Below, in pieces: positions 17,112 through 35,447 of a stretch of 64,000 nt of DNA. Position numbers and translations under genes: made by a program. The first letter of the stretch is position 1, and the number at the start of each line of letters is the position of its first letter. The DNA lies in IMG/VR virus record IMGVR_UViG_2882707223_000001. The stretch is one strand, 5' to 3'. The notes beneath the pieces are model-generated. The model made no database searches, was not told where the DNA came from, and saw nothing but the letters and a program-made list of their open reading frames with translations. The DNA comes from an uncultured virus (IMG/VR IMGVR_UViG_2882707223_000001). Lineage: Duplodnaviria > Heunggongvirae > Uroviricota > Caudoviricetes.

Positions 17112-17228
17112 ATGGGAAATTTTCAGGATACAGATAATGCTGTGCAAAAAATGGAATACGATGCGTTGAACGGGGAAATAAAGCGGACGATGAGAAGGTC
17201 TGCGAGGGACATGGTGCAGATAGGATAG
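17112..17228 (+). pseudogene. Truncated phage gene at the element junction
   Basis: GAGGA RBS; MGNFQ...RDMVQIG* stops exactly where base composition turns AT-rich. Confidence 0.5.
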
Positions 17229-17280
17229 CCAAAAAGTTCAAAAGTCAACTAAAAAAAGCCCTCTTTCGGGGGCTTCTTCC

Positions 17281-17676
17281 TTAGTATATGGTCATATCTT
17301 CATCTTCATTCTTTCTGTTGTATATTCTTATATGGAAATAGTTTATATTTTTCTCCTCTATGTTTTTATTATATTCTTTAAAAATAGGGGGTGTTTCGTA
17401 TCTTCTATCGTATTCTAAATAATCATATAATTTGTTTTTTAAATAATATACTGATGTATTACTTTTTATCAATATAGAAACTGAATAATATTCATATCCT
17501 TTTTTATCTCCTTTATACATATATCCTATTATTAAGTCATTCGTTATGTAATCAGTGTCTATACCTATGGTTTGTATAAAGCCATTTTGCATTAACCACT
17601 TGTGCCAGTCTATTAGAGATGTTCCTGTTTCTGGTAATCTATCAATAAGTTTTTGAAATCTTTTTGTTCTTGCCAT
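17281..17676 (-). CDS. Hypothetical protein of the AT-rich element
   Basis: 131 aa; AAGGGAG RBS; terminator hairpin at 17251-17275. Confidence 0.65.
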   Translation of the reverse strand: MARTKRFQKLIDRLPETGTSLIDWHKWLMQNGFIQTIGIDTDYITNDLIIGYMYKGDKKGYEYYSVSILIKSNTSVYYLKNKLYDYLEYDRRYETPPIFKEYNKNIEEKNINYFHIRIYNRKNEDEDMTIY

Positions 17677-17764
17677 TTTGGGCGGCTCTCCCTTCTCTAT
17701 AAATTATTTATAAAGTATACCATATTTAGCGCATATGTGCTAGCCCTCATTTAAAGGCGGTAAA

Positions 17765-18510
17765 CTCGGCGGCTGTCAAGTGCTAGGGTGGAGATTTTTT
17801 TGAATGTATTTCTCAAAAAAATACTACCCGATCTTGACTGCCTTACAACCTAAAAGATAATAGGAACAGAGGAAAAACCACAAAGGGGCTTTTCCTCTTA
17901 GGTGCTATGTTTTTCTTTCCAGTCTGTCAAGAAAGTATATTTTTTGTGGTAAATGATGATTTTTTAAAAAAAATGAAAAAATGCGTGATTTTTTTTGAAT
18001 TTCAAAAACCCTCTGGGGAAAGTGGGGAAACTGGGGAAAATGGGGAAAAAATATAATGATAAACCTTTAAAAATGGCTTAAATACGGCATTTCTCTTACG
18101 CGCACACACCGACAAGGGCTTGTGTCGGTGTGTGTGGGGTAAACTGGGGAAAGTGGGGAAAGTGGGGAAAAAAACACGCCTAAAAGTGGGGAAAATGGGC
18201 TTTTAAAGTGGGGAAAGTGTTTCACTTACCCCTCTTTCCACAGTTTAGCCCTCAATTCACATACGAACAAGCGGCAAAAAACGAAGTTTTTTGAAGGCTA
18301 ACCCGCCCGCTTGTGAGGTCGTAAGATTTTCGGTAGAAAATCGAGCGTAAAAAATACAAAAAGTTTTACCCCTTCAGGGGTAAAATGTTCACGCCCTTAT
18401 AAAAACAAGTATAAAATATTAAATTCACTTAGGTTTTTCCCCTGTTTACTTTTACTTACCCCTGTTTATTTTTCTGATCTGTTGACAAAAGTGGGGAAAG
18501 ATTATAAAAT
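17765..18510. repeat. Putative replication origin: hairpins and TGGGGAAA iterons
   Basis: Long hairpin 17769-17842 containing TACTACCCGA; about ten TGGGGAAA-type copies at 18014-18217 plus one at 18492; hairpins CACACACCGACA/TGTCGGTGTGTG and TTTTACCCC/GGGGTAAAA. Confidence 0.65.
18482..18510 (+). promoter_or_regulatory. Rep-operon promoter with an iteron in its spacer
   Basis: TTGACA-AAAGTGGGGAAAGATTA(17)-TAAAAT. Confidence 0.7.
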
Positions 18511-18634
18511 TATATTATAAAAAATAAATAAAAATCTAACAAGTATAGATTAAATGGAAAAATTAAAGGGCTGAAAAGTCTTTTATTTTCTGTTTAATCT
18601 ATTTTTTTGTTTTATAAGAAAGGATGAAAAAAAG

Positions 18635-18922
18635 ATGAGAGAAATTGCAAAAGATGAGTTTTGGGGAAAACTACCAAAACGCATAAATGAAAAGTCAATT
18701 AATAATGTATCTATGACTTTTTATAAAAATATCAATAATGAATATTTTATGATTTATAGAACCTATAATATGCGTCATAATTATATGATTTCATTGGAAT
18801 ATTTTGAAATATCTTATTATGAATACTTAGAAGAAAATGACGGTTATGATTATAGCTCAAATAAATATGATTCAAGCAATAGTGATTATAAAAAACGCTT
18901 TAACTATGGATATGATGATTAA
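18635..18922 (+). CDS. Hypothetical protein
   Basis: AAGGA RBS; first gene of the rep operon. Confidence 0.55.
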   Translation: MREIAKDEFWGKLPKRINEKSINNVSMTFYKNINNEYFMIYRTYNMRHNYMISLEYFEISYYEYLEENDGYDYSSNKYDSSNSDYKKRFNYGYDD

Positions 18923-18939
18923 AAAAGGAAGGTGAAAAA

Positions 18940-19215
18940 ATGAATAATAAAAAATACTTTAACTGTAAAGATGAAAACGGTTATATGAAAAAAGATCGAG
19001 AATGGATAGATAAGTTTAAGGCTCTTTATAATAATTATACGGCTGATGAACTTATAGCCTATGAAAAGGAAATATATTCAATGGGTAATGATATAAGGGG
19101 CTTAGAGCATAAGGTGCATTTTATAAGTATTATTCTATATAATAATTACGCTCTTTTTACTGCTATTGAAGAACTTATAAAAGAAAAAACAGAAAAAAAG
19201 GGCGGTGATGTCTAA
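18940..19215 (+). CDS. Hypothetical protein
   Basis: AAGGTG RBS; stop overlaps the inferred Rep start. Confidence 0.6.
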   Translation: MNNKKYFNCKDENGYMKKDREWIDKFKALYNNYTADELIAYEKEIYSMGNDIRGLEHKVHFISIILYNNYALFTAIEELIKEKTEKKGGDV

Positions 19216-20915
19216 TCAATGAAAAAGAAAAAACAGTTATAAAGGCGAAAATCTTTGAAATAGTGCAATATGAAAAGAATCCCAAAACTGGAGAAGATTT
19301 ACATTTTAATGAAGAAGTTATAAAAGATGGATTAGACCACAAAACTATTAAGCGTTTCGCTTATATCAAACATAATAAAGATCCTTATACCTTAGAAGAA
19401 GAAAAACAAGGGAAAGGAAAAGCGGGTGAGTTAAAAAATGACCACTGGCACGTTGTCCTTGAGTGCCCTGGCAAGGTTGATATAAAATATATTGCTAAGT
19501 GGTTTAATGTTCCTGAACAATATATAGAACTACCTAAAGGGCGTGGGGCTTTTCTTGATAAGGTGGCTTATTTAACACACGAAAGCGAAAAGGAACAAGC
19601 AAAAGGTAAAGCCCTCTATGATGATGATGAAGTTATAGCAAATTTTGACTGGCGAAAAGAACTCATTGAAAGAGAAGAAAATAAACTAAAATATGGCGGG
19701 GATTTATGTCCAAAAGATCGTATGCGTTATGATGTAAGATATTTGGGTAAAACTTTGAAAGAATGTCAAGACGAAGATAAAAAAATGTATATGGATAATG
19801 AAAAAGATCTTACATATTTAAGACTGCGTTATATAAATGAGTTAAAACCTCCAAAAGAAAGAATTAACATTTATATATCTGGTGAAGGTGGAAACGGTAA
19901 AGGCTTAATGAGTAAAGCAATAGCAAGAAGCCTATTCCCTGATATAGCAAATGAAGAAGATATATATTTTTGTGTAGGTGCTGAAGGTGCTGAATTTATC
20001 GGTTATGACGGACAACCTATTATTATTTGGTCTGATAAAAGGTCTTGGGAACTTTTAAAAGTTTTAAAAGGTAGGGGAAACGCTTTTGAAGTTTTAGATC
20101 CTCATCCTGATAGAAAAAACCAAAATGTTAAATATGCTTCAACTAATTTATGTAATAAAATAAATATAATAAATAGCGTTCAAGGTTGCTCTGATTTTTT
20201 AGATCGCCTTGCGGGGGAATATACAGATAAGCAAGGAAATAAACAAGAAGCGGAAGATAAAACACAGAGTTATAGAAGATTCCCTCTAACAATTACAATA
20301 AATGATAATTCATATGATTTAAAAGTAAATAAAGGTTATAAAGACAATACAAAAGATTTTTTAAATTATTATGAGTATTTGAATATTGATTGTAATTTAC
20401 AACAAATAAGGGTTATGTGTGGCGATAATGAAGCATTGGCAAAAGAACTTGAAAAGCAAGCAATAGAACCTATTTTAAAAGAATATAATGAAATTGTAAA
20501 CAGAGAAAAACCACAATATACTGAAGCTGAATTAAGAGAAATGTTTAAAAATGTAGGCAAGGTAAGAACACAAGAACCTGTAAAAGAAAGTATAAAAAAT
20601 AAATCTGAACTAGGTCATATTTATACTACTAATTGTGAGTATTATTATACATACCCTTGCGCTGATATTGAAAAGCCTGATTTTGATTATAAAAAATGTG
20701 TTGTTCCTTCATATTTGAATGAGTATGAATGTAAACAAAATTTAAAAGAATTTGAAAAAATACATAGAGAACTTGAAGCACAAAAAACAAAAGAAGAAAA
20801 AGAAAAAGAAGCACAAAAACAACAAGAAGCACAAGAACAAAAAGACGCTGATTTATTAGAAATGGCACAAGATGATTTTTACAATGAACCTGATAATAAT
20901 GATTTTTTTAATTAA
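19215..20915 (+). CDS. rep: Rolling-circle Rep: HUH endonuclease (Rep_2-like) fused to an SF3 helicase
   Basis: YIKHNKD, HWHVVL (HUH), YLTH (catalytic Tyr), GEGGNGKG Walker A, GYDGQPIIIWSD Walker B; frame open back to ATC 19215. Confidence 0.85.
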   Translation: MNEKEKTVIKAKIFEIVQYEKNPKTGEDLHFNEEVIKDGLDHKTIKRFAYIKHNKDPYTLEEEKQGKGKAGELKNDHWHVVLECPGKVDIKYIAKWFNVPEQYIELPKGRGAFLDKVAYLTHESEKEQAKGKALYDDDEVIANFDWRKELIEREENKLKYGGDLCPKDRMRYDVRYLGKTLKECQDEDKKMYMDNEKDLTYLRLRYINELKPPKERINIYISGEGGNGKGLMSKAIARSLFPDIANEEDIYFCVGAEGAEFIGYDGQPIIIWSDKRSWELLKVLKGRGNAFEVLDPHPDRKNQNVKYASTNLCNKINIINSVQGCSDFLDRLAGEYTDKQGNKQEAEDKTQSYRRFPLTITINDNSYDLKVNKGYKDNTKDFLNYYEYLNIDCNLQQIRVMCGDNEALAKELEKQAIEPILKEYNEIVNREKPQYTEAELREMFKNVGKVRTQEPVKESIKNKSELGHIYTTNCEYYYTYPCADIEKPDFDYKKCVVPSYLNEYECKQNLKEFEKIHRELEAQKTKEEKEKEAQKQQEAQEQKDADLLEMAQDDFYNEPDNNDFFN

Positions 20916-20928
20916 GGGGTGAAAACAA

Positions 20929-21096
20929 ATGAGAGAAATAGAAGAACAAGATTTTAAAAGTAGATACTTACTATTTTATGATAATTATAAAAAGGGCAAT
21001 TATATTTTAAGTGTTTATATTGATAAAGATTTAAACAAGTTTATAAATGTCTTAGACTTAGACTTGATGGAAAATGCATATTATATTGAAAAATAA
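20929..21096 (+). CDS. Small hypothetical protein (~55 aa)
   Basis: AAGGGGTG RBS; MREIEEQDFKSRY... Confidence 0.45.
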   Translation: MREIEEQDFKSRYLLFYDNYKKGNYILSVYIDKDLNKFINVLDLDLMENAYYIEK

Positions 21097-21121
21097 AAAT
21101 ACAAAAGAAAGGAAGAATAAA

Positions 21122-21469
21122 ATGAAAGAAAAAATGATAATTGATAGAATGGAAGATTTAAAAGAAATGATTAAAATTGAAAAGAGAAGAATAAAGGATC
21201 TTGAATATGATTTTGAATTTGGTTTTTCTTATGAACTTGAAGCAATTACTATGAATTTAATGGTGGCATATAGAATATTGGCGTATCTTCAAGGCGAATA
21301 TATAGAAGTTTTAGAACCATATAGACCTAAAAAAGAAATACCTTTAAAAACAAATCTTGATGATTTATTAAATGAGTTTGATTTAGAAGAACCATTAGAA
21401 GATCCTGAATTTATTAAGGAAAATATTGAAAATAAAAAGGAAGGAGAACAAAAGAAATGGATACAATAA
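21122..21469 (+). CDS. Hypothetical acidic coiled-coil protein
   Basis: AAGGA RBS before ATG 21122 within the listed ORF. Confidence 0.55.
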   Translation: MKEKMIIDRMEDLKEMIKIEKRRIKDLEYDFEFGFSYELEAITMNLMVAYRILAYLQGEYIEVLEPYRPKKEIPLKTNLDDLLNEFDLEEPLEDPEFIKENIENKKEGEQKKWIQ

Positions 21470-21618
21470 TAAAATTTTATATAAAAAAATATCTTTATAA
21501 AAAATTAGATGAAATACAAAAACAAAATAATGAAGATACTTCTGTAAATGATATTTTATATGACTGGGTTAATTCTTCATCTGTTGAATTTTAAAAAATA
21601 TGATGATATAATTATCTA

Positions 21619-21800
21619 AGAGAACGGGAAACTCTTAAACAATCCTAAAAATTGCTTAACAAAAAAATCCTACACTCTTAACAAAACACATCGGGTAAGT
21701 GTATAAAAAGCCTGTAGACTTAACTTATGATTATTTGATGGAATAAATCTAATAACTTTATTAAATAGCCTTTACTGCTAAATGCGGTAAGGGCTTTTTT
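21619..21800 (+). ncRNA. Candidate ~180-nt small RNA
   Basis: TTGAAT-17-TATAAT with extended TG (21584-21612); terminator AGCCTTTACTGC/GCGGTAAGGGCT plus T-run (21768-21800); no ORF. Confidence 0.55.
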
Positions 21801-21844
21801 GATCTGTTGACTTCTGATATGTAAAAATTATAAAATCAAATTAT

Positions 21845-22538
21845 AAGTTATTTATATATATCTTTATACAGATATTAAAAGTTTTGATGAACTAGCGTTC
21901 CTTAAGTATTCGCCTTTTGTATATTAGGTAATAAAAAATATATATTCTTTTTGGGAAGTTTAGAATTAAAAACAAACTTGTAAGTTTAGGAATTGGTATT
22001 TATTACATACTATTAAGAAGTAAAAAAGAGTATAAAAGTTTAGGTGATATGGCAATGTAAAAGTTGCTAATATTTTTAAAACTTAGTTATGTAACAACAA
22101 GAAGAAGTTGTTATTTTTTTGGTAGAAAATCACTCCTGTAATAAGGGGTCTTGGTTTACAAAATGCTTTGTCATTTTGGTTTAAAATCTCCTTTTATTAC
22201 AAAAAGAAATCTTATGATTTTTTATAATATTTAAGACAGTGAAGAAAACACTTTATCTAAAAAATTACAAAAAGGAAAAAAACCTTTTAAAAAAATACAT
22301 CTAACTTTTTAGAATTTTAGCGTATTACGCTTTAAGAGAAAAAAGCAAAAAATACGCTTGATCGGGTTGTGGTATCTGATAGCAAGATGAAACCGCCGAT
22401 CCTCTTTTGCTCTGGCTATTGTAAAAGCCTTTGCTAATTCTAATGCTTATATTGCTATATGTAACTAATAACCACGTAATTAATTATAAGATATAACATA
22501 AATAATCGTGTATTTGATGGCGAAAACGCCTTTTTTTC
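21845..22538 (+). ncRNA. Candidate large (~660-nt) structured non-coding RNA
   Basis: Promoter 21807-21836; 5'/3' closing helix 21848-21864 with 22488-22505; many nested long-range helices; terminator GGCG-AAAA-CGCC-T7; no ORF of 60 aa or more on either strand. Confidence 0.65.
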
Positions 22539-22648
22539 TTACTATTCTATGTCTTTTATCTACATTGAGGGGAAAAACTTGTTTTTCCCCGCTCAATGTA
22601 GATAAAAATGGGTTGAGTAAGAATTGAGAAGGTGATCTATTTCTTGAT

Positions 22649-22815
22649 TAATACGTATTAATTTTGCTAATACGTATTAAATTGCTAATACGTCTTTAAT
22701 ACGTATTAATTTGCTAATACGTATTAATTTTGCTAATACGTATTAATTTTGGGGAAATCCTAAAAAATAATACGTATTAATTTGCTAATACGTATTAAAT
22801 TGCTAATACGTATTA
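22649..22815. repeat. Array of 12-bp palindromes TAATACGTATTA
   Basis: 8 perfect copies and 1 imperfect copy, mostly at 18-19 bp period, in blocks of 6 and 3. Confidence 0.95.
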
Positions 22816-22915
22816 ATTTTATATATAGCCCGCCTACGGGCGGGGGCTGAAAAAAAGATTATGAGAATAAAAACAATAAGAATAAAAATTTTGATTTGAA
22901 AGGAGAACAAAAACA

Positions 22916-23410
22916 ATGAAAAAATACTTTTTAATAATACAACCTGATAACTTTAAAAAACCTAAAAAGGTGGAAAGAATAATTATATTTGATAAAGATA
23001 AAGCCTTAATTTTTGATTGTGAAATGACACGAATTTCTTATATGTATATAAAAAAATTAATGTCTGAAAACGCTCTATTTATTACATACAATGGTGAACT
23101 TTTAAAAAATATGTTATGGCAATTTTTTGGCTTTTGTGAATATAAAAACATTATTGATTTGATGGAAAACTTTGCCGTTGTATATGGAAAATATAAAGAC
23201 TGGGAAACAGAAGAAGGCTCTTTATATATCTGGCAAAAATTAGAAACTGCTTTAAATTATTATAAAGATAGGGGCTATAAAATACCTAATTGTAAAATTA
23301 ATATTTATGAACCTCTGGACGTTATAAGCGGAACAATTATATTATATGACTGTATGAAAGACTGGGAAGAAAAACAACTACAAAAAGAAATTAGAAAGGG
23401 GGTGATTTAA
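22916..23410 (+). CDS. Degenerate DEDDh/DnaQ exonuclease-like protein
   Basis: DLMENFAVVYGKYKDWE...YIWQKLETALNYY resembles the exonuclease at 36803-37330, but the acidic catalytic motifs are absent. Confidence 0.55.
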   Translation: MKKYFLIIQPDNFKKPKKVERIIIFDKDKALIFDCEMTRISYMYIKKLMSENALFITYNGELLKNMLWQFFGFCEYKNIIDLMENFAVVYGKYKDWETEEGSLYIWQKLETALNYYKDRGYKIPNCKINIYEPLDVISGTIILYDCMKDWEEKQLQKEIRKGVI

Positions 23411-24351
23411 TCCGTAATATAAATCAACAATTAAATTATGCTATAAGTAAATCTTTAAAAATTGGTGAAAGTAAACACTCTGCTAAAAAGAACGGCACTT
23501 ATAGAGAAGGTAATATTTATAGCAATAATACATTACAATCTTATAAAGATACCGCTAAAAATTTAAGTAATTGGCTGAAAGAAAAACATCCTGAAGTAAA
23601 AAATGTTGTAGATATAAAACAAGAACATATTCAAGAGTGGATCAATGACAGGGGTAAAAACTGGTCGCTTAGAACGCTTGAAAATCATATGACTAAAATA
23701 AAATATCTTGAAGAACAATCAAAAAAAGTCTTTGGGCGTGATAATGTAAATTTCTATAATAAAGATTATGAAAAACCTAAAACAAAAGAATCAACAAGGG
23801 ATAAAGCCTTTACTCCTGATGATTTAAACAGATTAAGGGAAACAATGAAAAATAGCCGCTCTTTTGCAAAAGAAGCAATAGAAATTACAAGCCGCTGTGG
23901 ATTGCGTATTGATGAAGTAGCACATTTAAAAAGAGAAGATATAAACATATCTGAAAAAACTATATATGTTGATAGAGAAGGGGCAAAAAACGGTAAAGCC
24001 CGTGTTGTTCCTGTTCGTGATAAAGATATAAATTATTTTAAAGAATTATTAGAAAAATATCCTGAAAGGGGCTATTTTACAAAAACTGACGCTAAAAGCA
24101 TAAGTAAAAGCATACGCCGCTATATGGATAAGACACAAGACAGGGAAGGCGTGTTATTGTCTAAAAAATATGAAAAAACAACCGATCACGCTATAAGAAA
24201 ATTATACGCCACGGAAAGAATGAAGGAACTTAGGGGCAATGAACCTTTAAGCAATAACAAGGAAGAAATGAAAAACTGGAATATAGTTTCTAAGGAATTA
24301 GGACACGGTGAAGGTAGAAAAAATTTATATAATACATATTGTAAGGGATAA
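23410..24351 (+). CDS. Tyrosine recombinase/integrase
   Basis: CGLRIDE (R), AKNGK (K), HAIRK (HxxR), LGH, terminal TY; frame open upstream to ATC 23410, encoding a SAM-like N-domain. Confidence 0.88.
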   Translation: MRNINQQLNYAISKSLKIGESKHSAKKNGTYREGNIYSNNTLQSYKDTAKNLSNWLKEKHPEVKNVVDIKQEHIQEWINDRGKNWSLRTLENHMTKIKYLEEQSKKVFGRDNVNFYNKDYEKPKTKESTRDKAFTPDDLNRLRETMKNSRSFAKEAIEITSRCGLRIDEVAHLKREDINISEKTIYVDREGAKNGKARVVPVRDKDINYFKELLEKYPERGYFTKTDAKSISKSIRRYMDKTQDREGVLLSKKYEKTTDHAIRKLYATERMKELRGNEPLSNNKEEMKNWNIVSKELGHGEGRKNLYNTYCKG

Positions 24352-24415
24352 TATAAACCAACTGGAAGATGAAGCAAGCCCTGTCTTTGGGCTTGGTTCA
24401 TCTGTAAGGCGGTAG

Positions 24416-24439
24416 CAAGCCGAAAGGCTTGTTTTTTTT
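24416..24439 (+). terminator. Intrinsic terminator after the recombinase
   Basis: CAAGCC-GAAA-GGCTTG-T8. Confidence 0.85.
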
Positions 24440-24608
24440 GACTTTTTTATAATTGCTTATTATTTTATACATATGGCGTATGTAATCTATACATAACTTA
24501 TGGTGTATAGAATATGTATAAAACGCCTTAAATGCGCTGTAATTGATTTTAAAATCCTTTAATGACTGTTTACCCTCTGGAAGTATTTAAAAATGATTCT
24601 GGGGCATT

Positions 24609-24836
24609 TTACGGCTTTTGTGGCGGCTCTGGTGGCGTGTCTGGTAAGAAAATAACAACACTCTCGGCTTGGCACTGTAAAATTTGGCATAACTTTTCTA
24701 ATGTGTGCATTGTAATGCTCTTATTGCGTTTTAAGTTGGTTATGGTGTAAGGGCTGAAATTGTGCTTGTATATAAGCGTATATGTTGTTATCCCTTGCTT
24801 TTTCATTGTTTTCCACAATGGCTCATAAGAAATCAC
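24609..24836 (-). CDS. XRE/Cro-C1 HTH regulator
   Basis: MISYEPLWK...TLEKLCQILQC is a typical short HTH; divergent from the early operon. Confidence 0.85.
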   Translation of the reverse strand: MISYEPLWKTMKKQGITTYTLIYKHNFSPYTITNLKRNKSITMHTLEKLCQILQCQAESVVIFLPDTPPEPPQKP

Positions 24837-24897
24837 AAGATCGCCCCCTTCCTACTGGTTTTTTGAATATTTTTATTATCTTATAGCAAAGTTTTAA

Positions 24898-25001
24898 AAT
24901 TAAATGCGAAAAGAGTTGAATAAACTCTATCGCATTTATTTTTTTATCCATGAAAAACATAGATAAAATGCGGTGGAGCCGAAAACTCTACCGCATTTTT
25001 T
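24898..25001. promoter_or_regulatory. Two related inverted-repeat operators between divergent regulators
   Basis: AAATGCGAAAAGAG...CTCTATCGCATTT and AAATGCGGTGGAG...CTCTACCGCATTT. Confidence 0.65.
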
Positions 25002-25036
25002 ATTTTACCCAAAAGACGAAAAAGGAGGCGTTGGGC

Positions 25037-25234
25037 GTGAGAAAACCGTACAAAAAATTAACCTATGCAGACCGGCAGACAATAGAACGCATGAGCGGGC
25101 AGGGGATAGCGGCAAAAGCGATAGCATTAGAAACCGGCGTACACATTGCAACCATTTACAGAGAGATGCAGCGGGGAGCCGATGAAGAAGGACACTACAA
25201 AGCAGAATTAGCACAGCAGGCTTTATTCAGTTAG
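25037..25234 (+). CDS. Small HTH protein (IS30-type HTH_38)
   Basis: YKKLTYADRQTIE...GVHIATIYREMQRG; AAGGAGG RBS. Confidence 0.75.
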   Translation: MRKPYKKLTYADRQTIERMSGQGIAAKAIALETGVHIATIYREMQRGADEEGHYKAELAQQALFS

Positions 25235-25246
25235 GTGGGGGGCAAA

Positions 25247-25630
25247 ATGAAAGTTGTTAATTTCGATGAAGTGAAAGCGGGCGATTTAGTACAAGTGCCA
25301 CGTACTCAATTTGCGCCGCAGCGGTACGGCTGGAATGGTTGGCTATTCAGCGAGGCAATAGTTATAAGAAAAGGGATCGGGAGAAAAAGCAATAAGCCAG
25401 TAATAACGGTTGAAATGCGTACACCGAAAAGCACGAACGATTACGGAACGACAGAAAGAACATTTCGCGCTAATTGTGTGTTTCTAACAAATGGAGTAGA
25501 GATCGCAAGAAAGTTTTTAAAAGAGGACGGAATAGAAAGCAAGGAAGAATTTGAAAAAGCTATAAAGAACGAAGAAATAACGGGGGCTGATTGGATCAAA
25601 TTTTTGGTAGATAAGGGTTTCTTGTTTTGA
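25247..25630 (+). CDS. Phage hypothetical protein
   Basis: ORF with RBS in the early operon. Confidence 0.6.
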   Translation: MKVVNFDEVKAGDLVQVPRTQFAPQRYGWNGWLFSEAIVIRKGIGRKSNKPVITVEMRTPKSTNDYGTTERTFRANCVFLTNGVEIARKFLKEDGIESKEEFEKAIKNEEITGADWIKFLVDKGFLF

Positions 25631-25968
25631 GTGTGGGCGGCACCGGAAAAACCGCACGCGCCCTATTCGTGGGAAAACCGCAAAGCGGCGGGGCAGGTTC
25701 GGCACCTGCAGGGCGTATTTGTAGCGAGGTTGGCAACCTTGCGGCAGATGCAGCAGGCAAATAGCTGTTATCTGTATACTGTGAAAAAATTGCAGCGGTC
25801 ACGCCTGCTAGAAAGCGTGTAGACGGTCAACAAGTTTTCAGTTGCTTTTTAATGTGAAAAGCAGCCCACACAGTAAATTATAAGCCGATGCGGGATTATA
25901 TGAAGAAAGAGAGGGATCCGCCCTAAAAAGGGCAGCAGGAGCGTTACATAGAACCTAAAAAAGAATAG

Positions 25969-26033
25969 AAAAATAGCCGTTGCGTTGGCAGCGCAGCGGC
26001 TAAAGAATTGGTGCAAATGCAATAACTCAATCT
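25969..26033 (-). ncRNA. Putative counter-transcribed RNA in the rep leader
   Basis: Minus-strand TTGACG-17-TATAAT with extended TG (26068-26040); hairpin 25974-26002 followed by a U-tract. Confidence 0.55.
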
Positions 26034-26171
26034 AAGAAAATTATACCACTTATTGCGTTTGTCGTCAAGCCAAAACACCGGCAAACAAGCCGGTTTCGGG
26101 CTTGTTCAAGCTATTAACTTTAGGATCATATATGGCAAAAAGAATATGACGCAGAAGAAGGTGTAATTAAG

Positions 26172-26909
26172 ATGGGATATTTTAAAACATCAGTAGAGGC
26201 AGGGGCAACGATTGAGGTAACAAAAAGTTATACAAAGCGGGTAGGGGTAAAGGCAAGAGGAGGGAAGGAGAAACCGACAGCAGAGGAAATAGAAAAGGTT
26301 AATCAGATGAACGCAGAGAGAACCCTCCGACTAAAGATAAATAATAATTTCGGTGTAGACGATCCGTTTATCACTCTGACATACCGGAAGGACGAAAGAC
26401 CGGAACCGGAAAAGGCAAAGAAAGATATTAAAAAGCTGATAGACAGATTACGGAAAGAGTTTAAGAAGGTAGGGGTGGATCTGAAATGGGTATGCGTAAC
26501 AGAGTACCTAAACAAAGCAATACATCATCATTTATTGATTAACCATATCGAAGGGCAAGATGTTTGCAAATGGGTACGCAGGTTGTGGAAATATGGCAGA
26601 CCGGACTTTAAGTATTTGGACGATACCGGACAATATAAAGACCTTGCGGCGTATCTGATAAAAGAAACATCAAAGACATACAAGGCAAAGGACGGAGCGA
26701 AGAAACAAAGATACAGTTGCAGCCGTAATTTGGTAATGCCAACACCGAAAACCGAGATTATCAAAAAGGCGAAAAAGTGGTTGCCGGATCCAAAACCGAT
26801 AAAAGGCTACTACATAGACAAAGACACAGTATATAACGGCGTAGATCCCTTTACTGGCAGGGCATACCAAAAGTATACAATGGTTCGTATTTCCGGTAGT
26901 GGCGGTTAG
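26172..26909 (+). CDS. HUH rolling-circle-type replication initiator
   Basis: FITLTY (motif I), IHHHLLIN (motif II), LAAYLIKE (motif III). Confidence 0.8.
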   Translation: MGYFKTSVEAGATIEVTKSYTKRVGVKARGGKEKPTAEEIEKVNQMNAERTLRLKINNNFGVDDPFITLTYRKDERPEPEKAKKDIKKLIDRLRKEFKKVGVDLKWVCVTEYLNKAIHHHLLINHIEGQDVCKWVRRLWKYGRPDFKYLDDTGQYKDLAAYLIKETSKTYKAKDGAKKQRYSCSRNLVMPTPKTEIIKKAKKWLPDPKPIKGYYIDKDTVYNGVDPFTGRAYQKYTMVRISGSGG

Positions 26910-26989
26910 CTTGTGGATATGTGGATAACTCATAAAGAAAATGCCGCGCCGTCAAGTAATTACTGGACAAAAAGGCAGATTGGAGGAAG

Positions 26990-27424
26990 GTGGATAAGTT
27001 GGAGGTGGGAATATACGTTAAATGTCATTTCAGAGGAAACCCAAGAGGCGCGGGAGAGGCGGCAGCGGTCATAGAGTACATAGACGGCACCGGAAAAAGT
27101 CACACAAGAAAACAGCAGATCCGGATCGAGCATGACACGAAAAACGCCCTAAATCTGAAAATCTGTATAGCGGCAATGCGGATATTATTAAAGCCTTGCC
27201 ACATTACAATTTACACAGCTTGCGACTACATGGGGAACGCCTGCCGGTTGGGGTGGGTGGAGAAGTGGCAGCAGGACGGTTGGAAGAAAGCAAACGGAAA
27301 GCCGCCCGCCAACGTGGAGGACTGGAAACAATTCTTTATGCTGACACAGATCCACACCGTAACATTTGCAGAGTATGACAGCCGACACGATGAAGAATTA
27401 GAAAAAGATTTAAGGGGGCAATAG
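26990..27424 (+). CDS. RNase H-like protein
   Basis: GNPRG...KPCHITIYT...WQQDGWKKANGKPPANVEDWK is RNase HI-like; the canonical acidic residues look altered. Confidence 0.7.
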   Translation: MDKLEVGIYVKCHFRGNPRGAGEAAAVIEYIDGTGKSHTRKQQIRIEHDTKNALNLKICIAAMRILLKPCHITIYTACDYMGNACRLGWVEKWQQDGWKKANGKPPANVEDWKQFFMLTQIHTVTFAEYDSRHDEELEKDLRGQ

Positions 27425-27428
27425 CGGC

Positions 27429-28163
27429 ATGGTTTACATGGGATCGAAAGCCAAAATAACAGATTACATAGTGCCGGTTATACAAAGTCATATAGCCGTA
27501 AGCGGCAGCAGAACATATATAGAACCGTTTTGCGGCGGCTGCAATGTGATAGACAAGATAAAGGCAAATAACCGGATTGCGGCAGATAAAAACGAATATT
27601 TGATCGCACTCTTTAAACACCTGCAAAGCGGCGGTAAGCTGCCCGATGCAGTACCGAAGGAAGAATACGACAGAGTAAGAGCAGACAAAGAAAGTTTTCC
27701 GGCGTGGTATGTTGGGGCGGTCGGTTTCCTTGCATCATTTAACGGCAGGTTTTTTGATGGAGGCTATGCGGGCATCGGGTACGACAGAGGCAGAAAAAGG
27801 GATTATTTCAGAGAAAACAGCAGCAACATTTTAAAACAGATGCAGCGCGGCGGCATCGCGGGTATAGATTTCATGGTAAAGGATTATCGGGAGTTTTGCC
27901 CGAAAGGTTGTGTTGTATATTGCGATCCGCCGTATGACGAAACGAAAGAGTACGGCATTGCAAAAGCATTTAACCGGTTGGAGTTTTGGCAGATTATGAG
28001 GGATTGGAGCCGATGCAATACGGTTTTAATTTCAGAGCAAAAGGCACCGGAGGATTTTATAACCGTTTGGGAAAAAGAAATAGATCGCACGATGAAAGCA
28101 AAAGAACATTTCAGAGTGACAGAAAAATTATTTGTATGGGGGGGTAGCGGTAAAAATGATTAA
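27429..28163 (+). CDS. DNA adenine methyltransferase (Dam/D12 class)
   Basis: YMGSK, YIEPFCGG, YCDPPY. Confidence 0.9.
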   Translation: MVYMGSKAKITDYIVPVIQSHIAVSGSRTYIEPFCGGCNVIDKIKANNRIAADKNEYLIALFKHLQSGGKLPDAVPKEEYDRVRADKESFPAWYVGAVGFLASFNGRFFDGGYAGIGYDRGRKRDYFRENSSNILKQMQRGGIAGIDFMVKDYREFCPKGCVVYCDPPYDETKEYGIAKAFNRLEFWQIMRDWSRCNTVLISEQKAPEDFITVWEKEIDRTMKAKEHFRVTEKLFVWGGSGKND

Positions 28164-29154
28164 GTGCGGCGAAATAAAGATACTTGAATTATTTGGCGGC
28201 ATTGGATCGCCACGATGCGCCCTGCGAAATATCGGAATACCGGTTAAAGCCATTGATTATGTGGAGATAGACGAAAAAGCCGTAAAATCATACAATGCAA
28301 TGTTTGAAAGCGAATTGCCGTATACAATACAATCCGTTGTGGGTTGGAATTTAAAGCCGGATATTCTGATACATGGATCGCCCTGCCAAGATTTCAGCAT
28401 TGCGGGGCATCAAGGAAAAGCAACGGCAGCAGGTGACAGAATAAACCGAGGAAAAGGCGCAGATAAGGGATCCGGAACGCGGTCAAGTCTTATGTGGGAA
28501 ACCATAAACATAATTAAGCAGATGGGGGAATGGAAACCGCGTTTTATCATTTGGGAAAATGTAAAGAATGTTACATCAAAACACATGATCCATAATTTTA
28601 ACCGGTATCTATCAGAAATGCAGAGATTGGGGTACATAAACAGTTTTCAAACATTAGATGCGCGGGAGTTTGGATTGCCGCAGGCGCGGGAAAGAGTTTT
28701 TACAATATCTGTTTTGGGCGGGGATCCGTTTAATTTCGATGATCTGATAAAAACGCCGATGCGGAATATTGCGGAATTTTTAGAAAACGATGTGCCGGAA
28801 GTATACACCGTAACACAACCAAGCGTATATAACGCAATAGGGCAAAAAGGAATACGAAGGGCAACAGTCATAAAAGATTACGCATATACCATAACGGCGC
28901 GGCAGGATAGGACACCGGCGCAGGTTATAGATTTAGGCGGCGGAAAATATCGCTATTTGACAGAGCGTGAATGTTGGAGGCTGCAAGGTTATAGCGATGC
29001 AGATTTTGAGGCGGCAGCAGCAGTACAAGAGAAAAATGGACGGTACGCAATGGCACTTTATAAGCAGGCGGGTAACAGCATACCGGTAACGATATTTGAA
29101 AGCATATTCAGAAAAATTATTTTAGGACAGACGAACGAAAGCGGGGGCGATTAA
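28156..29154 (+). CDS. DNA cytosine-5 methyltransferase
   Basis: LELFGGIG, GSPCQ, WENV, PQARER, QAGNS. Confidence 0.93.
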   Translation: MIKCGEIKILELFGGIGSPRCALRNIGIPVKAIDYVEIDEKAVKSYNAMFESELPYTIQSVVGWNLKPDILIHGSPCQDFSIAGHQGKATAAGDRINRGKGADKGSGTRSSLMWETINIIKQMGEWKPRFIIWENVKNVTSKHMIHNFNRYLSEMQRLGYINSFQTLDAREFGLPQARERVFTISVLGGDPFNFDDLIKTPMRNIAEFLENDVPEVYTVTQPSVYNAIGQKGIRRATVIKDYAYTITARQDRTPAQVIDLGGGKYRYLTERECWRLQGYSDADFEAAAAVQEKNGRYAMALYKQAGNSIPVTIFESIFRKIILGQTNESGGD

Positions 29155-29484
29155 ATGGTATTGAATTATAACAAAATGCCGGAACCGGCAGTAAGATTGA
29201 CAGATGAAAAGTTGATAAACCAAATTTACGATACGATGACAGACTTTTTCACATTCTGCATTTTAGAGCATGAGAGTAGGCAAGTATTTTACGAAAAGGA
29301 CAACATTTATAGCGGCACATTTAAAATTCGTATCTTTTGGATCAATAAGGAAAAGGGGTTAGGGTACGGCATCGCGGAGGACTGGAAAGCCGGAAAGATA
29401 CAAGTATACCGGTTTGGAACCGCCGAGAACTGGCAGACCTTTAAAAACAGTTTTGCGGCACAGATGCGCGGTGACAATTCATAG
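29155..29484 (+). CDS. Phage hypothetical protein
   Basis: Abuts the preceding stop; RBS present. Confidence 0.6.
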   Translation: MVLNYNKMPEPAVRLTDEKLINQIYDTMTDFFTFCILEHESRQVFYEKDNIYSGTFKIRIFWINKEKGLGYGIAEDWKAGKIQVYRFGTAENWQTFKNSFAAQMRGDNS

Positions 29485-29495
29485 AGGGGCAAATA

Positions 29496-30419
29496 ATGAA
29501 GGTAGAACTTATAGACGTGGACGGTCACAATTTCCCAAATTTGCCACTTATGAAAATATCAGCATACCACAAAACAAAGGGCGATAGTGTAAGATGGCAC
29601 AATCCGTTGACCGCATGGACAGATCCTCCGGATCGGGTATACATGAGTAAGGTTTTTACATTCACACCGGAATACGAATACCCAATAAATGCAGCAGAGA
29701 TCATAAAAGGCGGCACCGGCTATAACTACCCAAACGGCGGCGAACCATTGCCGGAAGAAATAGAACATATTTACCCAGACTATGGATTATACGGAATTAC
29801 AAACACCGCATACGGATTTTTAACAAGAGGTTGTCCGCGAAATTGTGATTTCTGCATCGTAGGGAAGAAAGAAGGGCTATGCAGCAGGAAAGTGGCAGAT
29901 TTGCGGGAGTTTTGGAAAGACCAAAAAGAAATTAAGCTATTGGATCCCAATATTTTAGCGGCGAGGGAACACAAGGAACTATTAGAACAGCTTGCATCAT
30001 CGGGCGCGTGGGTAGATTTTACGCAGGGTTTAGATGCAAGGCTTTTGACAGAGGAAAACATAGAGATCATAAAGCGGATCAAGCTGAAAATGGTACATTT
30101 CGCATGGGATAACATAGCAGATGAAAAATTGATTGTACCAAAGCTGCAATTATTTAAAGAGAAAACCGGAATAGACAAGCGGAAATGTACGGTTTATGTG
30201 CTGACAAATTTTAATAGTACACTGCAGGAAGATTTGCACCGGATTTATAAAATACGCGATTTAGGAATGGCACCGTTTGTAATGGTTTATGAGAAACAGA
30301 CGGCACCAAAGGAAATAAAGGATCTGCAAAGGTGGGTAAACAACCGCATTATTTGGTATAGCACAGAAAAGTTTGAGGATTACAGTGGCGACACAAAGAC
30401 AAGGAGGCAAGGAAAATAA
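29496..30419 (+). CDS. Radical SAM protein
   Basis: RGCPRNCDFC (CxxxCxxC). Confidence 0.85.
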   Translation: MKVELIDVDGHNFPNLPLMKISAYHKTKGDSVRWHNPLTAWTDPPDRVYMSKVFTFTPEYEYPINAAEIIKGGTGYNYPNGGEPLPEEIEHIYPDYGLYGITNTAYGFLTRGCPRNCDFCIVGKKEGLCSRKVADLREFWKDQKEIKLLDPNILAAREHKELLEQLASSGAWVDFTQGLDARLLTEENIEIIKRIKLKMVHFAWDNIADEKLIVPKLQLFKEKTGIDKRKCTVYVLTNFNSTLQEDLHRIYKIRDLGMAPFVMVYEKQTAPKEIKDLQRWVNNRIIWYSTEKFEDYSGDTKTRRQGK

Positions 30420-30905
30420 TGGATAAAGTACACTTTAGCACCGGAAAGGACGATTGGGGAACACCGCAGGATCTTTTCGATGCACTCAACAAAGAATTTG
30501 GTTTTACATTGGATCCATGTGCCGATGATAATAACCACAAATGCGCCAAGTATTACACGGTGGAGCAGGACGGTTTGGCGCAATCATGGGCGGGCGAAAC
30601 GGTATTTTGCAACCCGCCGTATAGCCGGAAAACAAAATCAAATGCCGGTCAAATTGCATGGGTGGAAAAATGCTATAAAGAGGCGCAGGGGGGGGATCAT
30701 CGTGGTTATGTTGATACCCGCCCGCACAGATACAAAAATGTTTCACGATTTCATTTTAGGCAAAGCAGAAATACGGTTTATCAAAGGGCGGCTTAATTTT
30801 GAGGTAGACGGAGAGAAAAGCAAGGATCCGGCACCGTTCCCAAGTATGATCGTAGTATTCAGAGGCGGGCAACCCACAAATGAAGTAAAGAGTATAACGG
30901 CATAG
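30419..30905 (+). pseudogene. Phage N6-adenine methyltransferase, frameshifted at a G8 tract
   Basis: DDWGTPQ...LDPCA...FCNPPY in one frame and VVMLIPARTDT...APFPSMIVVF in the next; switch at G8 30688-30695. Confidence 0.85.
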
Positions 30906-30919
30906 CGGAGGGGTATACG

Positions 30920-31201
30920 GTGGAACTTTTGACACGCGAAATAGCTAATACATACAGAGATAGAGCGAAAGCCCTGCCGTATAACGGTATGCAGGACATA
31001 GGGGAGCGCAGGGCATTGCGGATAGAGTTGCAGGAGCGATGCGGCGTAACGGAATTAGAGGCAATCAATATTATAAACGGTTTCCACATTGATATTTATT
31101 GCATGAAATATCTGATAAAGGCGCGAGAGGCGGCAGAGGGAACACAGGAACCGGCAAAGAAAAAGCGGCGCAAGCAGTACGACAGAAGGGAATTTTATTA
31201 A
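30920..31201 (+). CDS. Phage hypothetical protein
   Basis: GGAGG RBS and GTG start. Confidence 0.6.
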   Translation: MELLTREIANTYRDRAKALPYNGMQDIGERRALRIELQERCGVTELEAINIINGFHIDIYCMKYLIKAREAAEGTQEPAKKKRRKQYDRREFY

Positions 31202-31222
31202 AAAGCAGAAAGGCGGCAGATT

Positions 31223-31519
31223 ATGGGAAAAACAAAAAGCATTGTAACAGAGCATGAAAAAATGTGTTTCTTTTGCGGCAGACCGGCAGAGTGCGAGCAT
31301 CATTTATTATTCGGCAGCGGCATTAGAGAATTGGCAGAGCAGGACGGCTTGAAAGTACCCGCCTGCAATAACTGTCATAACATGGGCAGGACAACCGAGC
31401 GCGTACATGATAACCCTATGGCTGAAAAGCTGTCAAAGATTTTAGGGCAGGCGGTGTATGAGGCGAAGATCGGCAGCAGGGAGGAGTTTCGGGCGCGTTA
31501 TGGCAAGTCTTATTTGTAG
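31223..31519 (+). CDS. Zn-binding HNH-like phage protein
   Basis: CFFC...EHHLLFG...CNNCH. Confidence 0.7.
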   Translation: MGKTKSIVTEHEKMCFFCGRPAECEHHLLFGSGIRELAEQDGLKVPACNNCHNMGRTTERVHDNPMAEKLSKILGQAVYEAKIGSREEFRARYGKSYL

Positions 31520-31529
31520 GGGGCATGGT

Positions 31530-31826
31530 ATGGCTATGACAGAGATCATAAAGCAGCTTGAAAAAGAGATTTTGCAGCAGCGGGAAGATGAACAGAGGAT
31601 CCTAAACGAGATCGCGGCGGTAGCATCTTTAGATTTCGCACAGCGGGCAGCAGGCGTATTGGATCCGAAAAAGCACTTTTACGGTTTCGAGGCGTATTTG
31701 ATATTGCTTGACAATCTGGAAGTGCTGTTATATGCGGGTATGCCCGATGATTTGGCACTTGAAAGCGTACAGTGTGGGTATGATGCAGAAACAATTTTAG
31801 CAATGTGGAGGTTATCGAAAGTATGA
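31530..31826 (+). CDS. Phage hypothetical protein
   Basis: Fills the operon gap; start uncertain. Confidence 0.5.
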   Translation: MAMTEIIKQLEKEILQQREDEQRILNEIAAVASLDFAQRAAGVLDPKKHFYGFEAYLILLDNLEVLLYAGMPDDLALESVQCGYDAETILAMWRLSKV

Positions 31827-32218
31827 ATAAATGTCATTTCATGGGGCGATTGGTACGCGATCCCGAAATTCGTTACACACAAAGCGATCAGCCGGTGCCG
31901 GTAGCGCATTACACTTTAGCGATTGATCGTAGGATAAAGCGGCAGGGTGAGCCTTCGGCAGATTTTTTAGACTTTGTTGCATACGGAAAAGCGGCAGAGT
32001 TTACAGAAAAGTATTTAAAGAAAGGCATTAAAGTTGTGGTAACGGCGCGTTGCCAACGCCGCAATTATGAAAAGGACGGCAGGAAAATCTATGTAATTGA
32101 ATTTATCATAGAGGATCAAGAGTTTGCGGAAAGCAAGCGGGCAGCAGAGGGCGAACCGGAAAGCAATGATTTTATGCAGATACCGGACGGCGAGCAGGAC
32201 GAATTGCCATTTAATTAA
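31823..32218 (+). CDS. ssb: Single-stranded DNA-binding protein
   Basis: MNKCHFMGRLVRDPEIRY...ADF; acidic ELPF tail. Confidence 0.92.
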   Translation: MNKCHFMGRLVRDPEIRYTQSDQPVPVAHYTLAIDRRIKRQGEPSADFLDFVAYGKAAEFTEKYLKKGIKVVVTARCQRRNYEKDGRKIYVIEFIIEDQEFAESKRAAEGEPESNDFMQIPDGEQDELPFN

Positions 32219-32238
32219 AATTCAAGGAGGTTAAGCAA

Positions 32239-33021
32239 ATGCAAACAATTTCGATCATCAGCTTAAAAGGCGGCGTGGCAAAGACCACAACGGCGGTAAA
32301 CATGGCGTACATACTGGCAGCAGTACACAAAAAGAAAGTGCTTGTTATCGACAATGACAAGCAGGGTAACGCCTCTAAAGCGTTTGACCGGTACGACACC
32401 GAGGACGAGAACACCATAGCGCGGGCAATGTTGGAAAGAAATTTTGACGTTTCCGAGATTATCAAGAAAACAAATTACGAGGGCATCGACATTATAACCG
32501 CAAACATGGATCTACTGGAGGCGAACCTTAAAACCGTAGTAGACGCGGGCAGGCAGCAACAGACGCGATTTAAAAAGGCACTGGCAGCAGTTAGCGGCAA
32601 TTATGATTTCTGCATCATCGACAACGCGCCGGATATTAACATGAGTATCATTAACGCGCTTGTAATGACGAATGATGTGATTATGCCGATCTTTATGGAT
32701 CAGTATTCATTTGACGGCTTAAATATTCTGTTAGAGCAGATCGCGCAGGTGCAGGAAGATTTTAACGGAACACTAAATTTTGCCGGTTGCCTTGTGACAC
32801 AGTACCAAAACAACGATGTGAATAATTTGAACATTGAAAAGCTGCAAGCGCGGGGGTTGCCGATGTACGCGCAGAGGATCCGCAGAACGGAAAAGAAAGT
32901 AAGCGAAAGCACATTTGCGAAAATGCCGCTTGTGGAATATTCGGTAAGATGCGGAGCGGCGCAGGATTATAAAAAGTTTGTCGTAGAGTATTTAGGGGGT
33001 GCGGATTATGCAGATGCTTAA
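32239..33021 (+). CDS. parA: ParA/Soj ATPase
   Basis: KGGVAKTTT deviant Walker A, IDNDKQGNAS, IIDNAP. Confidence 0.92.
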   Translation: MQTISIISLKGGVAKTTTAVNMAYILAAVHKKKVLVIDNDKQGNASKAFDRYDTEDENTIARAMLERNFDVSEIIKKTNYEGIDIITANMDLLEANLKTVVDAGRQQQTRFKKALAAVSGNYDFCIIDNAPDINMSIINALVMTNDVIMPIFMDQYSFDGLNILLEQIAQVQEDFNGTLNFAGCLVTQYQNNDVNNLNIEKLQARGLPMYAQRIRRTEKKVSESTFAKMPLVEYSVRCGAAQDYKKFVVEYLGGADYADA

Positions 33022-33217
33022 ATTTAAAGCCAAATGCCCTTATGAGATAGGCGATCGAGTACGGTTTGAAAAGGGCGGCGAAATGCAGGTAATGGAAATT
33101 ACGGATATTATCACGCAGATCAGCGCAAAGACCGGACATATTAAATTTATTTTGGAGTTGGGCGGTTGGTATAAATTAGATACCGATTTACACGCGGTAG
33201 ATGTGCCGCGCACTTAG
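33008..33217 (+). CDS. Phage hypothetical protein
   Basis: Small ORF between parA and parB. Confidence 0.55.
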   Translation: MQMLKFKAKCPYEIGDRVRFEKGGEMQVMEITDIITQISAKTGHIKFILELGGWYKLDTDLHAVDVPRT

Positions 33218-33266
33218 TAAATACTGGACGAGTACCCAAATAGGGTACAAGGCAAAGGAGGCAATC

Positions 33267-35107: not shown

Positions 35108-35117
35108 GGGGGGCAGA

Positions 35118-35447
35118 ATGGGGAAAAGGCAAATAACCGCAACAATTCCATATTTTTACGAGGAACATATTGAGAACGAGAAAAGAGTGATAAAAAGGAA
35201 ACTGATTTATGAAATAGCCGAGGAACTGGAAGAAAATAAAAAATATGCTATTGAAATAAAAACGGTTATCGAGGACGAGTGTTGCGTAGGGGGTTATAAA
35301 ATCACAGTAAGCGCAGAAATAACAGAGATACAGCAAATAGAAGTTGAATTTATACCGCAGCGGAAAACATTACAACCGGCACCAAAGGCAAAAAAGAGTA
35401 TATTGCAAAAAGTAAAAGAGTTTTTCAGAAGGGAGGGTAGCTTATGA
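35118..35447 (+). CDS. Phage hypothetical protein
   Basis: Operonic ORF. Confidence 0.55.
   Translation: MGKRQITATIPYFYEEHIENEKRVIKRKLIYEIAEELEENKKYAIEIKTVIEDECCVGGYKITVSAEITEIQQIEVEFIPQRKTLQPAPKAKKSILQKVKEFFRREGSL

Follow-up and report, generated by a model that had tools for sequence, protein, structure and literature searches.

A probable 17-kb integrative plasmid with an HUH-SF3 Rep, lying in a prophage and split by a second phage

Results

Gene content of the locus

The 64,000-nucleotide stretch analyzed here (the window; IMG/VR virus record IMGVR_UViG_2882707223_000001) corresponds to contig C4:29916-93915 of a 4.02-Mb genome (G000) with a guanine-plus-cytosine (GC) content of 48.9%, and nearly all of it is prophage DNA. 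Between two phage gene sets lies a block of low GC content (0.23 to 0.34 versus about 0.45 in the flanks) that encodes a replication initiator (Rep), a small protein of the DnaQ fold, and a tyrosine recombinase and contains two long stretches free of open reading frames (ORFs), here called units 1 and 2 (Table 1). An original prediction had read this block as a self-contained satellite or integrative plasmid of about 7 kb (17228 to 24600), with an RNA module (large RNA, small RNA [sRNA], and nuclease-fold partner) as its main cargo. We suggest, with good though not complete confidence, that positions 17226 to 24885 are the left arm of a 17.0-kb integrative plasmid, designated E, with a Rep of the HUH-SF3 (pCRESS, YLxH) class, and that this whole is the best explanation of the locus.

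Table 1. Features of element E and its surroundings, in window coordinates
Feature	Position	Strand	Remark
Serine integrase of the window	1444-3000		
CI-type repressor	5895-6512		
Replication/recombination module	9491-17097		primase and RusA at its end
First 37 codons of prophage gene X	17112..17225	+	cut by insertion of E
attL crossover dinucleotide TA	17226..17227	.	left end of E
attP right half-site	17228..17250	.	ends in 13-bp arm TCAAAAGTCAACT; identical to L049 attP junction
131-aa ORF	17281..17676	-	no family match
Putative double-strand origin	18006..18221	+	hairpin 18103-18134, 12-bp stem, loop with GGGCTTG; flanking 9-bp iterons GGGGAAAnT
Three further conserved hairpins, candidate single-strand origin	18269..18385	+	all cells paired
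Predicted Rep-operon promoter	18482..18510	+	TTGACA, 17 nt, TAAAAT; iteron in spacer; 11/12 consensus matches
Two small ORFs (95 and 91 aa)	18635..19215	+	head of Rep operon
Rep	19263..20915	+	RepB-like HUH endonuclease and SF3 helicase; YLxH motif; Walker A GEGGNGKG
Small ORFs (55, 131, and 45 aa)	20929..21594	+	
Predicted terminator, then promoter	21767..21836	+	terminator 21767-21795; promoter 21807-21836
Left part of unit 2 (278 nt)	21846..22123	+	77.7% identity, G000 versus G001; about neutral rate
Conserved noncoding block (525 nt)	22124..22648	+	90.9% identity, G000 versus G001
Palindrome array	22649..22815	.	8 exact 12-bp TAATACGTATTA and one degenerate copy, mostly 18-19 bp apart
164-aa DnaQ-fold protein	22916..23410	+	lacks the DEDD acidic residues
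Tyrosine recombinase (313 aa)	23410..24351	+	read from ATC overlapping the upstream stop (TAATC)
178-nt structured repeat	24433..24610	+	
75-aa Cro/C1-type HTH protein	24609..24836	-	HTH_26, 2.4e-12
15-bp direct repeat TTTTATTATCTTATA, left copy	24871..24885	.	end of left arm of E
Phage P1, inserted in E	24886..64000	+	continues to C4:96230; total 41.4 kb

The Rep joins an HUH endonuclease domain, with its catalytic tyrosine in a YLxH motif, to a C-terminal SF3 domain, and so has both hallmarks of a pCRESS-type Rep. Both domains were detected above the Pfam cutoffs (Rep_OBD, 4e-6; RNA_helicase [SF3], PF00910, 1e-4), and a profile built from 15 homologs matched RepB of pMV158 (3dkx; 5e-4) across the HUH stretch and YLTHES. 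Invariant in these 15 sequences were H61 and H63 (the HWH stretch), Y103, L104, and H106, together with Walker A residues G207 to K213; the profile also gave weak matches to picornavirus 2C and CRESS Rep helicases (E values of 0.18 to 0.3), and phmmer searches of PDB with the Rep alone returned nothing useful. The predicted Rep was thereby borne out, as was the accompanying claim that the left arm holds no capsid, relaxase, or resistance gene: no such family, and no defense family, was found there in Pfam, PHROGs, NCBIfam, or PADLOC. No capsid or packaging-hijack family emerged from these four databases among 22 proteins of E, some of whose ORFs have no family assignment.

The Rep family comprises at least 654 relatives, and the longest contig exceeded 10 kb for 11 of the 120 relatives listed, so that most appear to be small plasmids. 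The best Rep match in PLSDB was a 4.5-kb Leptotrichia plasmid (40% identity), followed by phytoplasma plasmids, and 21 PLSDB plasmids encode related Reps. A tblastn search of phages with the Rep gave no match, scans of viral_contigs with the Rep and with the 164-amino-acid (164-aa) DnaQ-fold protein found no relatives, and megablast of the island against phages and plasmids was likewise negative.

Unit 1 and the replication origin

Unit 1 (17677 to 18634) has no long ORF, even under genetic code 4. The original prediction was right that it is free of ORFs, but not that it is bounded by promoter and terminator like an RNA gene; comparative sequence evidence identifies it instead as the Rep double-strand origin, with the anatomy of an autoregulated rep operon. 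Both marks of such an origin, a hairpin and Rep-specific iterons, are apparent in anatomy and in covariation across an alignment of six sequences from about three lineages. The loop of the hairpin is kept, and 7 of its 12 stem pairs are compensated, with both sides changed, in the second Rep lineage. Seven of the 13 window matches to the iteron fall within the origin, and in two metagenome loci whose Rep DNA is about 69% identical (L049 and L051) the iterons have changed from GGGGAAAnT to exactly GGGTAAACT, the iteron in the Rep promoter spacer switching likewise. Over the five helices of the origin (43 pairs), 240 of 240 cells are paired and 16 pairs are changed on both sides, a degree of pairing that none of 500 shuffles reached, and slid controls were 42 to 49% paired. 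The GGGCTTG loop tops four unrelated stems, including stems upstream of Rep in two plasmids (Reps 40% and 27% identical), one of which also carries an iteron in its Rep promoter spacer, the layout seen in plasmid L001; GGGCTTG is thus a candidate family-wide nick-site loop for YLxH-type HUH-SF3 Reps. A distant blastn search of PLSDB with the origin found no match.

The hairpins next to the origin show compensatory changes in three of four helices and a single-stranded DNA (ssDNA) fold z score of -4.98, and their structure and position make a single-strand origin plausible. We propose that the excised circle would replicate by the rolling-circle mode: Rep would bind the 9-bp iterons, nick the conserved hairpin loop, and, by way of the spacer iteron, repress the promoter of its own operon, and the neighboring hairpins would prime the lagging strand.

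Extent of E and its contents

Onto this genome we mapped three close Rep relatives from genome collections, together with six metagenome loci that had been retrieved with the 164-aa protein. In all six relatives that reach the junction (G001, L047, L048, L049, L051, and L052), the left arm runs directly into a 9.4-kb right arm, which here is displaced by about 41 kb and falls outside the window (C4:96231-105619), and a contig of sequencing run X15 shows the same contiguity. The complete element measures 15.4 kb in G001. Of the limits first given to the element, the left one stands, at the TA of 17226-17227, and the right one does not, since homology continues to 24885 and then beyond.

Among the products of the right arm are a 506-aa large serine recombinase, a 275-aa secreted protein, and a 523-aa protein whose translation shows a signal peptide, TETES repeats, and a sorting-signal-like C terminus; the others include DnaJ-domain, transglutaminase-like, and ribbon-helix-helix (RHH) proteins and small proteins of unknown function. 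The terminator and promoter cassette that opens unit 2 recurs twice in this arm (C4:103542-103615 and C4:100829-100898; 81 to 82% identical), and a second copy of the 178-nt repeat (87% identical) lies at C4:103783-103959, 3' of the serine recombinase gene.

The Rep module is also found, 94 to 97% identical from window position 17240 on, in two loci with another backbone (L011:1-1653 and L013:1-6998), which has CTGTGTAA repeats but no attP half-site and adjoins FUR and rubrerythrin genes; the Rep module thus moves between backbones.

Ends, attachment sites, and integration enzyme

E interrupts a prophage gene, here called gene X, whose remainder lies at C4:105620-106943; the reading frame continues across both flanks of E, and in a congener (G235) gene X is intact (82% identical) and the target site uninterrupted. 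A 44%-identical partial homolog of gene X, probably of another prophage, was seen at G000:C33:174331-174759. The second crossover TA lies at C4:105618-105619, and TA alone is common to attL, attR, and the L049 attP at the switch point; in run X15, a different left flank begins exactly at 17226-17227. The inverted partner of the right half-site (C4:105595-105617) completes a 48-bp near-palindromic attP with perfect 13-bp inverted arms around the central TA, and the half-sites taken from attL and attR of this genome equal the L049 junction over 48 bp. L049, a metagenome contig of 16,440 bp, is circularly permuted: the end of the right arm (C4:105619) joins the start of the left arm (window 17220), and the two contig ends fall inside the repeat-rich 523-aa gene of the right arm, about 420 nt from each other. 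Probes for the attP and attB junctions found neither in the assembly of this genome. In G001, E splits an unrelated target, a Flavodoxin_4 gene, whose flanking halves cover profile positions 79-153 and 1-84, and the two targets have 17 of 24 central bases in common. The circular junction, the two interrupted target genes, and the intact empty site bear out the description of an integrative rolling-circle element.

The large serine recombinase gene (C4:104014-105534) lies next to attP, and its product has Resolvase, Recombinase, and Zn-ribbon domains, matches phrog_95 integrases (5e-82), and gave weak matches to XisF and Ccr in NCBIfam, below the cutoffs. This domain set, the position of the gene by attP, the 2-bp crossover, and the empty site together are the features of a large-serine-recombinase element. 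Because the recombinase gene abuts attP and the attachment sites have this anatomy, we infer that the large serine recombinase integrates and excises E. The tyrosine recombinase was considered as the integration enzyme and rejected, since the att anatomy indicates the serine recombinase, which lies 80 kb away on the contig. A natural attP and two attB targets are thereby gained for an uncharacterized large serine recombinase.

Unit 2 and the recombinase module

Unit 2 (21595 to 22915), the second predicted ORF-free stretch, is equally real: it has no ORF under genetic code 11 and none longer than 55 aa under code 4. Its two parts differ in rate between this genome and G001. In neighboring genes, 34 of 48 and 79 of 125 differences fall at third codon positions, from which a third-position divergence of about 21 to 25% was computed; the left 278 nt diverge at about this neutral rate, whereas the right 525 nt have accumulated changes at about half the third-position rate and are therefore constrained. 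A hairpin with 24-bp arms lies at 22554-22607 within the 525-nt block. RNAalifold had too little variation to work on in unit 2, a distant blastn search of PLSDB with unit 2 found no match, and a DNA search of 400 genomes of the family with 21595-23410 returned only matches of up to 131 nt, of which the two best were array-like.

The palindrome array that follows was expected to contain 0.16 exact copies by chance, and none of 100 shuffles reached eight; the array of the original prediction is thus confirmed. An analogous array of a related motif, ATGCGTATTA in both orientations, occurs in the congener (L028, G235:C10:139821-142901); it adjoins an ArdC-like gene (so labeled from its translation), and a distant homolog of the tyrosine recombinase (23% identical) is encoded about 700 nt away.

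The model of the 164-aa protein (pLDDT, 86) aligned over 127 to 146 residues with ExoI, RNase T, and Pol III epsilon (Z scores of 10.3 to 12.0), with a Foldseek E value of about 1e-3. No aspartate or glutamate is invariant in 11 family members at 31 to 52% identity, and strand 1 carries Q9-P10 where DxE is expected (placed by eye from motifs). The modeled protein is thus of the DnaQ/DEDD fold and catalytically dead, and, because no acidic residue is invariant, the label of a degenerate exonuclease-like gene is a fair one. The family is small, with 38 representatives at an E value of ≤1e-3 in 1.84 billion proteins.

The tyrosine recombinase, also foreseen, was matched by Phage_integrase (7e-13). 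Its frame is open from 23395, an ATG start would give just 220 aa, and a relative retains the residues encoded upstream of it; there is no ATG, GTG, or TTG for 98 codons, whereas the ATC at 23410, within the TAATC of window 23408-23412, stands behind a strong Shine-Dalgarno sequence, AAAGGGGGTGA, an arrangement kept in G001. In the resulting 313-aa reading, residues 33-100 match SAM-like N-terminal domains and the motifs RCGLRIDE, HAIRK, and LGH...YNTY are readable by eye, so that both the catalytic and the SAM-like domain are present, and the overlap of start and stop suggests that the recombinase is translationally coupled to the 164-aa gene.

Judged by sequence comparison, 21763-24885 forms a module of its own that has been exchanged between Rep lineages: it is 91 to 94% identical in L049 and L051, though their Rep DNA is only about 69% identical to that of E. 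The expectation that unit 2, the array, and the exonuclease-like gene co-occur was satisfied in seven of the seven relatives that extend to them, six of which had been fetched through the 164-aa gene, and failed in PLSDB, where every plasmid, including the 21 with related Reps, lacks them. By analogy, we read 21763-24885 as the resolution/recombination module of E, in which the array may be a recombinase-binding (res-like) and operator site. A rare combination has been isolated here, namely, a dead-exonuclease family, a tyrosine recombinase with a non-AUG start, and a 525-nt block under selection.

A phage within a plasmid within a prophage

At 24885, the relatives and run X15 pass without a break into the right arm, whereas in this genome the direct repeat TTTTATTATCTTATA, single copy in the relatives, borders phage P1 on both sides. 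Sequence comparison indicates that P1 split E after E had inserted in the prophage gene, so that the nesting order is chromosome, prophage P2, element E, and phage P1. A three-level nest of a phage in a plasmid in a prophage is documented in this way, with four junctions, each of them exact.

The second phage gene set of the window, from about 25000, comprises a helix-turn-helix (HTH) protein, a G2P-like Rep, methyltransferases, ParA/ParB, terminase, portal, capsid, sheath, tape measure, and endolysin genes. P1 is a 41.4-kb temperate phage with ParA/ParB and a G2P-like Rep, and its insertion point is a divergent promoter region of E. At its right end lies an IS30-family DDE transposase gene (239 bits versus a cutoff of 80; full-length phrog_4646), and a search for terminal inverted repeats around it found no clear ends. 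Among its homologs, which occur in temperate Clostridia phages, one is located at the end of a genome and another is annotated as an integrase, and on this ground the gene is probably P1's own integrase.

Outside the window, the right half of the host prophage P2 (C4:105620-121000; locus L024) carries genes for HicB, for head, major tail, and tape measure proteins, and for a tail endopeptidase, holin, and amidase. Genes for terminase, portal, and major capsid proteins did not turn up in P2 when ORFs of ≥80 aa were scanned, and P2 may therefore be defective.

Discussion

Integrated plasmids with HUH-SF3 Reps have already been described, and E belongs among them. Kazlauskas et al. (2019; PMC6668415) define groups pCRESS1 to pCRESS9, assign 97.5% of the Reps, those of groups 7 and 9 excepted, to site-specifically integrated plasmids, give the YLxH signature as that of pCRESS4 to pCRESS8, and place the rep gene usually near a tyrosine integrase, with direct-repeat att sites. 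Integrated pCRESS elements of groups 4 to 8, such as the 14.3-kb RumCAG-E1, resemble E in having an HUH-SF3 Rep with YLxH, no capsid gene, site-specific integration, and free small plasmid relatives; E is a member of this kind by virtue of its YLxH Rep, its HUH-SF3 architecture, and its integration. By eye, the N terminus of the E Rep resembles the pCRESS4 sequences in the supplement to PMC6668415. Unlike the published elements, E has ends that share only TA and an att anatomy that points to a large serine recombinase; its tyrosine recombinase is interior and paired with a dead DnaQ-fold protein, and its position is nested.

Three other kinds of system offer partial parallels. As in the RepB plasmids pMV158 and pE194, a Rep whose N-terminal domain aligns with the RepB structure (3dkx) is accompanied by an origin of a hairpin and direct-repeat iterons upstream of a presumably autoregulated rep operon; unlike those plasmids, E is integrative and 17 kb long, its Rep has an added SF3 helicase, and its loop carries GGGCTTG in place of the pMV158 nick sequence. 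Large serine recombinase elements (those of phrog_95 phage integrases, XisF, and Ccr) share with E the domain set, a gene abutting attP, insertions inside coding genes, and the 2-bp crossover, but the passenger in E is a rolling-circle plasmid and not a phage or an SCC-type cassette, and its crossover dinucleotide is palindromic. In Tn4430-type TnpI/IRS and in Xer/cer systems, repeated short binding motifs are clustered immediately ahead of the tyrosine recombinase gene. By analogy with these, the motif cluster before the recombinase of E could be both resolution site and operator; unlike them, E has an array of 8 to 9 identical palindromes and a translationally coupled dead-exonuclease partner, and any core site with a 6- to 8-bp spacer is putative.

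Several points weigh against our interpretation of E. The relatives are few and close (about three lineages, 85 to 98% identical), and because six of them were fetched through the 164-aa gene, the co-occurrence of the module is partly built in. Excision, ssDNA, and transcripts of E were judged from assembled sequence alone, and the L049 circle derives from a permuted map over 15,882 of 16,440 nt. The sequencing runs compared, two RNA libraries and two others, were used as contigs; those of the RNA libraries cover coding and noncoding parts alike and are possibly DNA, so that this flat cover carries no information on transcription, ends, or strand. The crossover TA (window 17226-17227; L049:4975-5023) is palindromic, and a palindromic dinucleotide should not fix the orientation of integration by serine integrases. 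The pMV158 nick sequence is absent from the candidate hairpin loop. Within unit 2, compensation affects 4 of 170 predicted pairs, and folding is about equal on the two strands (z scores of -2.8 and -3.2). Finally, the roles given to the tyrosine recombinase and the 525-nt block are drawn from position and analogy.

For the 525-nt block, we tentatively put forward, at rather less than even confidence, a transcribed leader or regulatory region of the module operon. That it is instead a DNA-level site, either a second single-strand origin (sso) serving the rolling-circle intermediate of 17 kb or a site of the oriT or pac type acting in trans, is doubtful but deserves to be weighed. An sso is required by rolling-circle replicons, and ICEBs1 has at least two such regions (PMC4595007); the block contains local hairpins, two with compensatory changes, and the hexamer TAGCGT, given as the CS-6 consensus of ssoA in PMC4598088. 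Nor does the block follow the Rep lineage, as would be expected of an sso primed by the host. A good sso candidate is already present beside the origin, however, and the promoter points into the block, both strands of which fold equally well; moreover, no partner resembling recombination site B (RSB), which with CS-6 marks ssoA, was recognized in unit 2, and no PLSDB plasmid shows similarity to it.

A free-standing functional RNA is an unlikely identity for the block, and the broader proposal from which we started, that RNA is the main cargo of a satellite of about 7 kb, is improbable. The arguments for it are real: a terminator and promoter cassette opens unit 2, its right 525 nt are under purifying selection, in every relative compared the block travels with the recombinase and the dead-exonuclease gene, and each element has two copies of a structured 178-nt repeat. 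The element is, however, 17 kb long, with a right arm that codes for surface and secreted proteins as cargo, and unit 1 is accounted for as the origin. Covariation is nearly absent from unit 2, and no Rfam family was matched, the six matches of E ≤1 to Rfam 15 over 16000-26500 all being far under the gathering scores and attributable to noise of microRNA models. Nor does E look like a phage satellite, since no packaging or capsid-linked gene was found among its proteins in the four databases and it also occupies a flavodoxin gene elsewhere, which is not a phage target. This attractive reading has thus been mostly corrected, and the lesson is that, in rolling-circle elements, large, structured, conserved stretches without ORFs are first of all origins.

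A variant in which the module is RNA assisted is more speculative still, and we give it little credence: a noncoding transcript region (about 21846 to 22650), the dead DnaQ-fold protein, and the coupled tyrosine recombinase would act together, with RNA or DNA hairpins and the nuclease-fold protein gating the recombinase sites and the array serving as landing pad. Least credible of all is the notion that two independent elements lie side by side and that the tyrosine recombinase integrates the left arm alone, for although published integrated pCRESS rep genes usually lie near a tyrosine integrase (PMC6668415) and the Rep module occurs without the remainder in L011 and L013, the sole repeat at 24885 is that of the phage insertion, the attP junction joins the end of the right arm to the start of the left arm, the split flavodoxin halves in G001 flank both arms jointly, and both arms carry the same promoter cassette and 178-nt repeat.

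Other features of E

The 178-nt repeat follows a terminator, lies 3' of two convergent genes (those for the HTH protein and the serine recombinase), and contains nested inverted repeats, one stem of which is compensated in G001; it could be an sRNA, a 3' untranslated region element, or a recombination site. The small ORFs downstream of Rep are mostly missing from G001 and L048, and the slot of the 131-aa ORF near the left end is variable, being occupied in G001 by an unrelated ORF of 134 aa.

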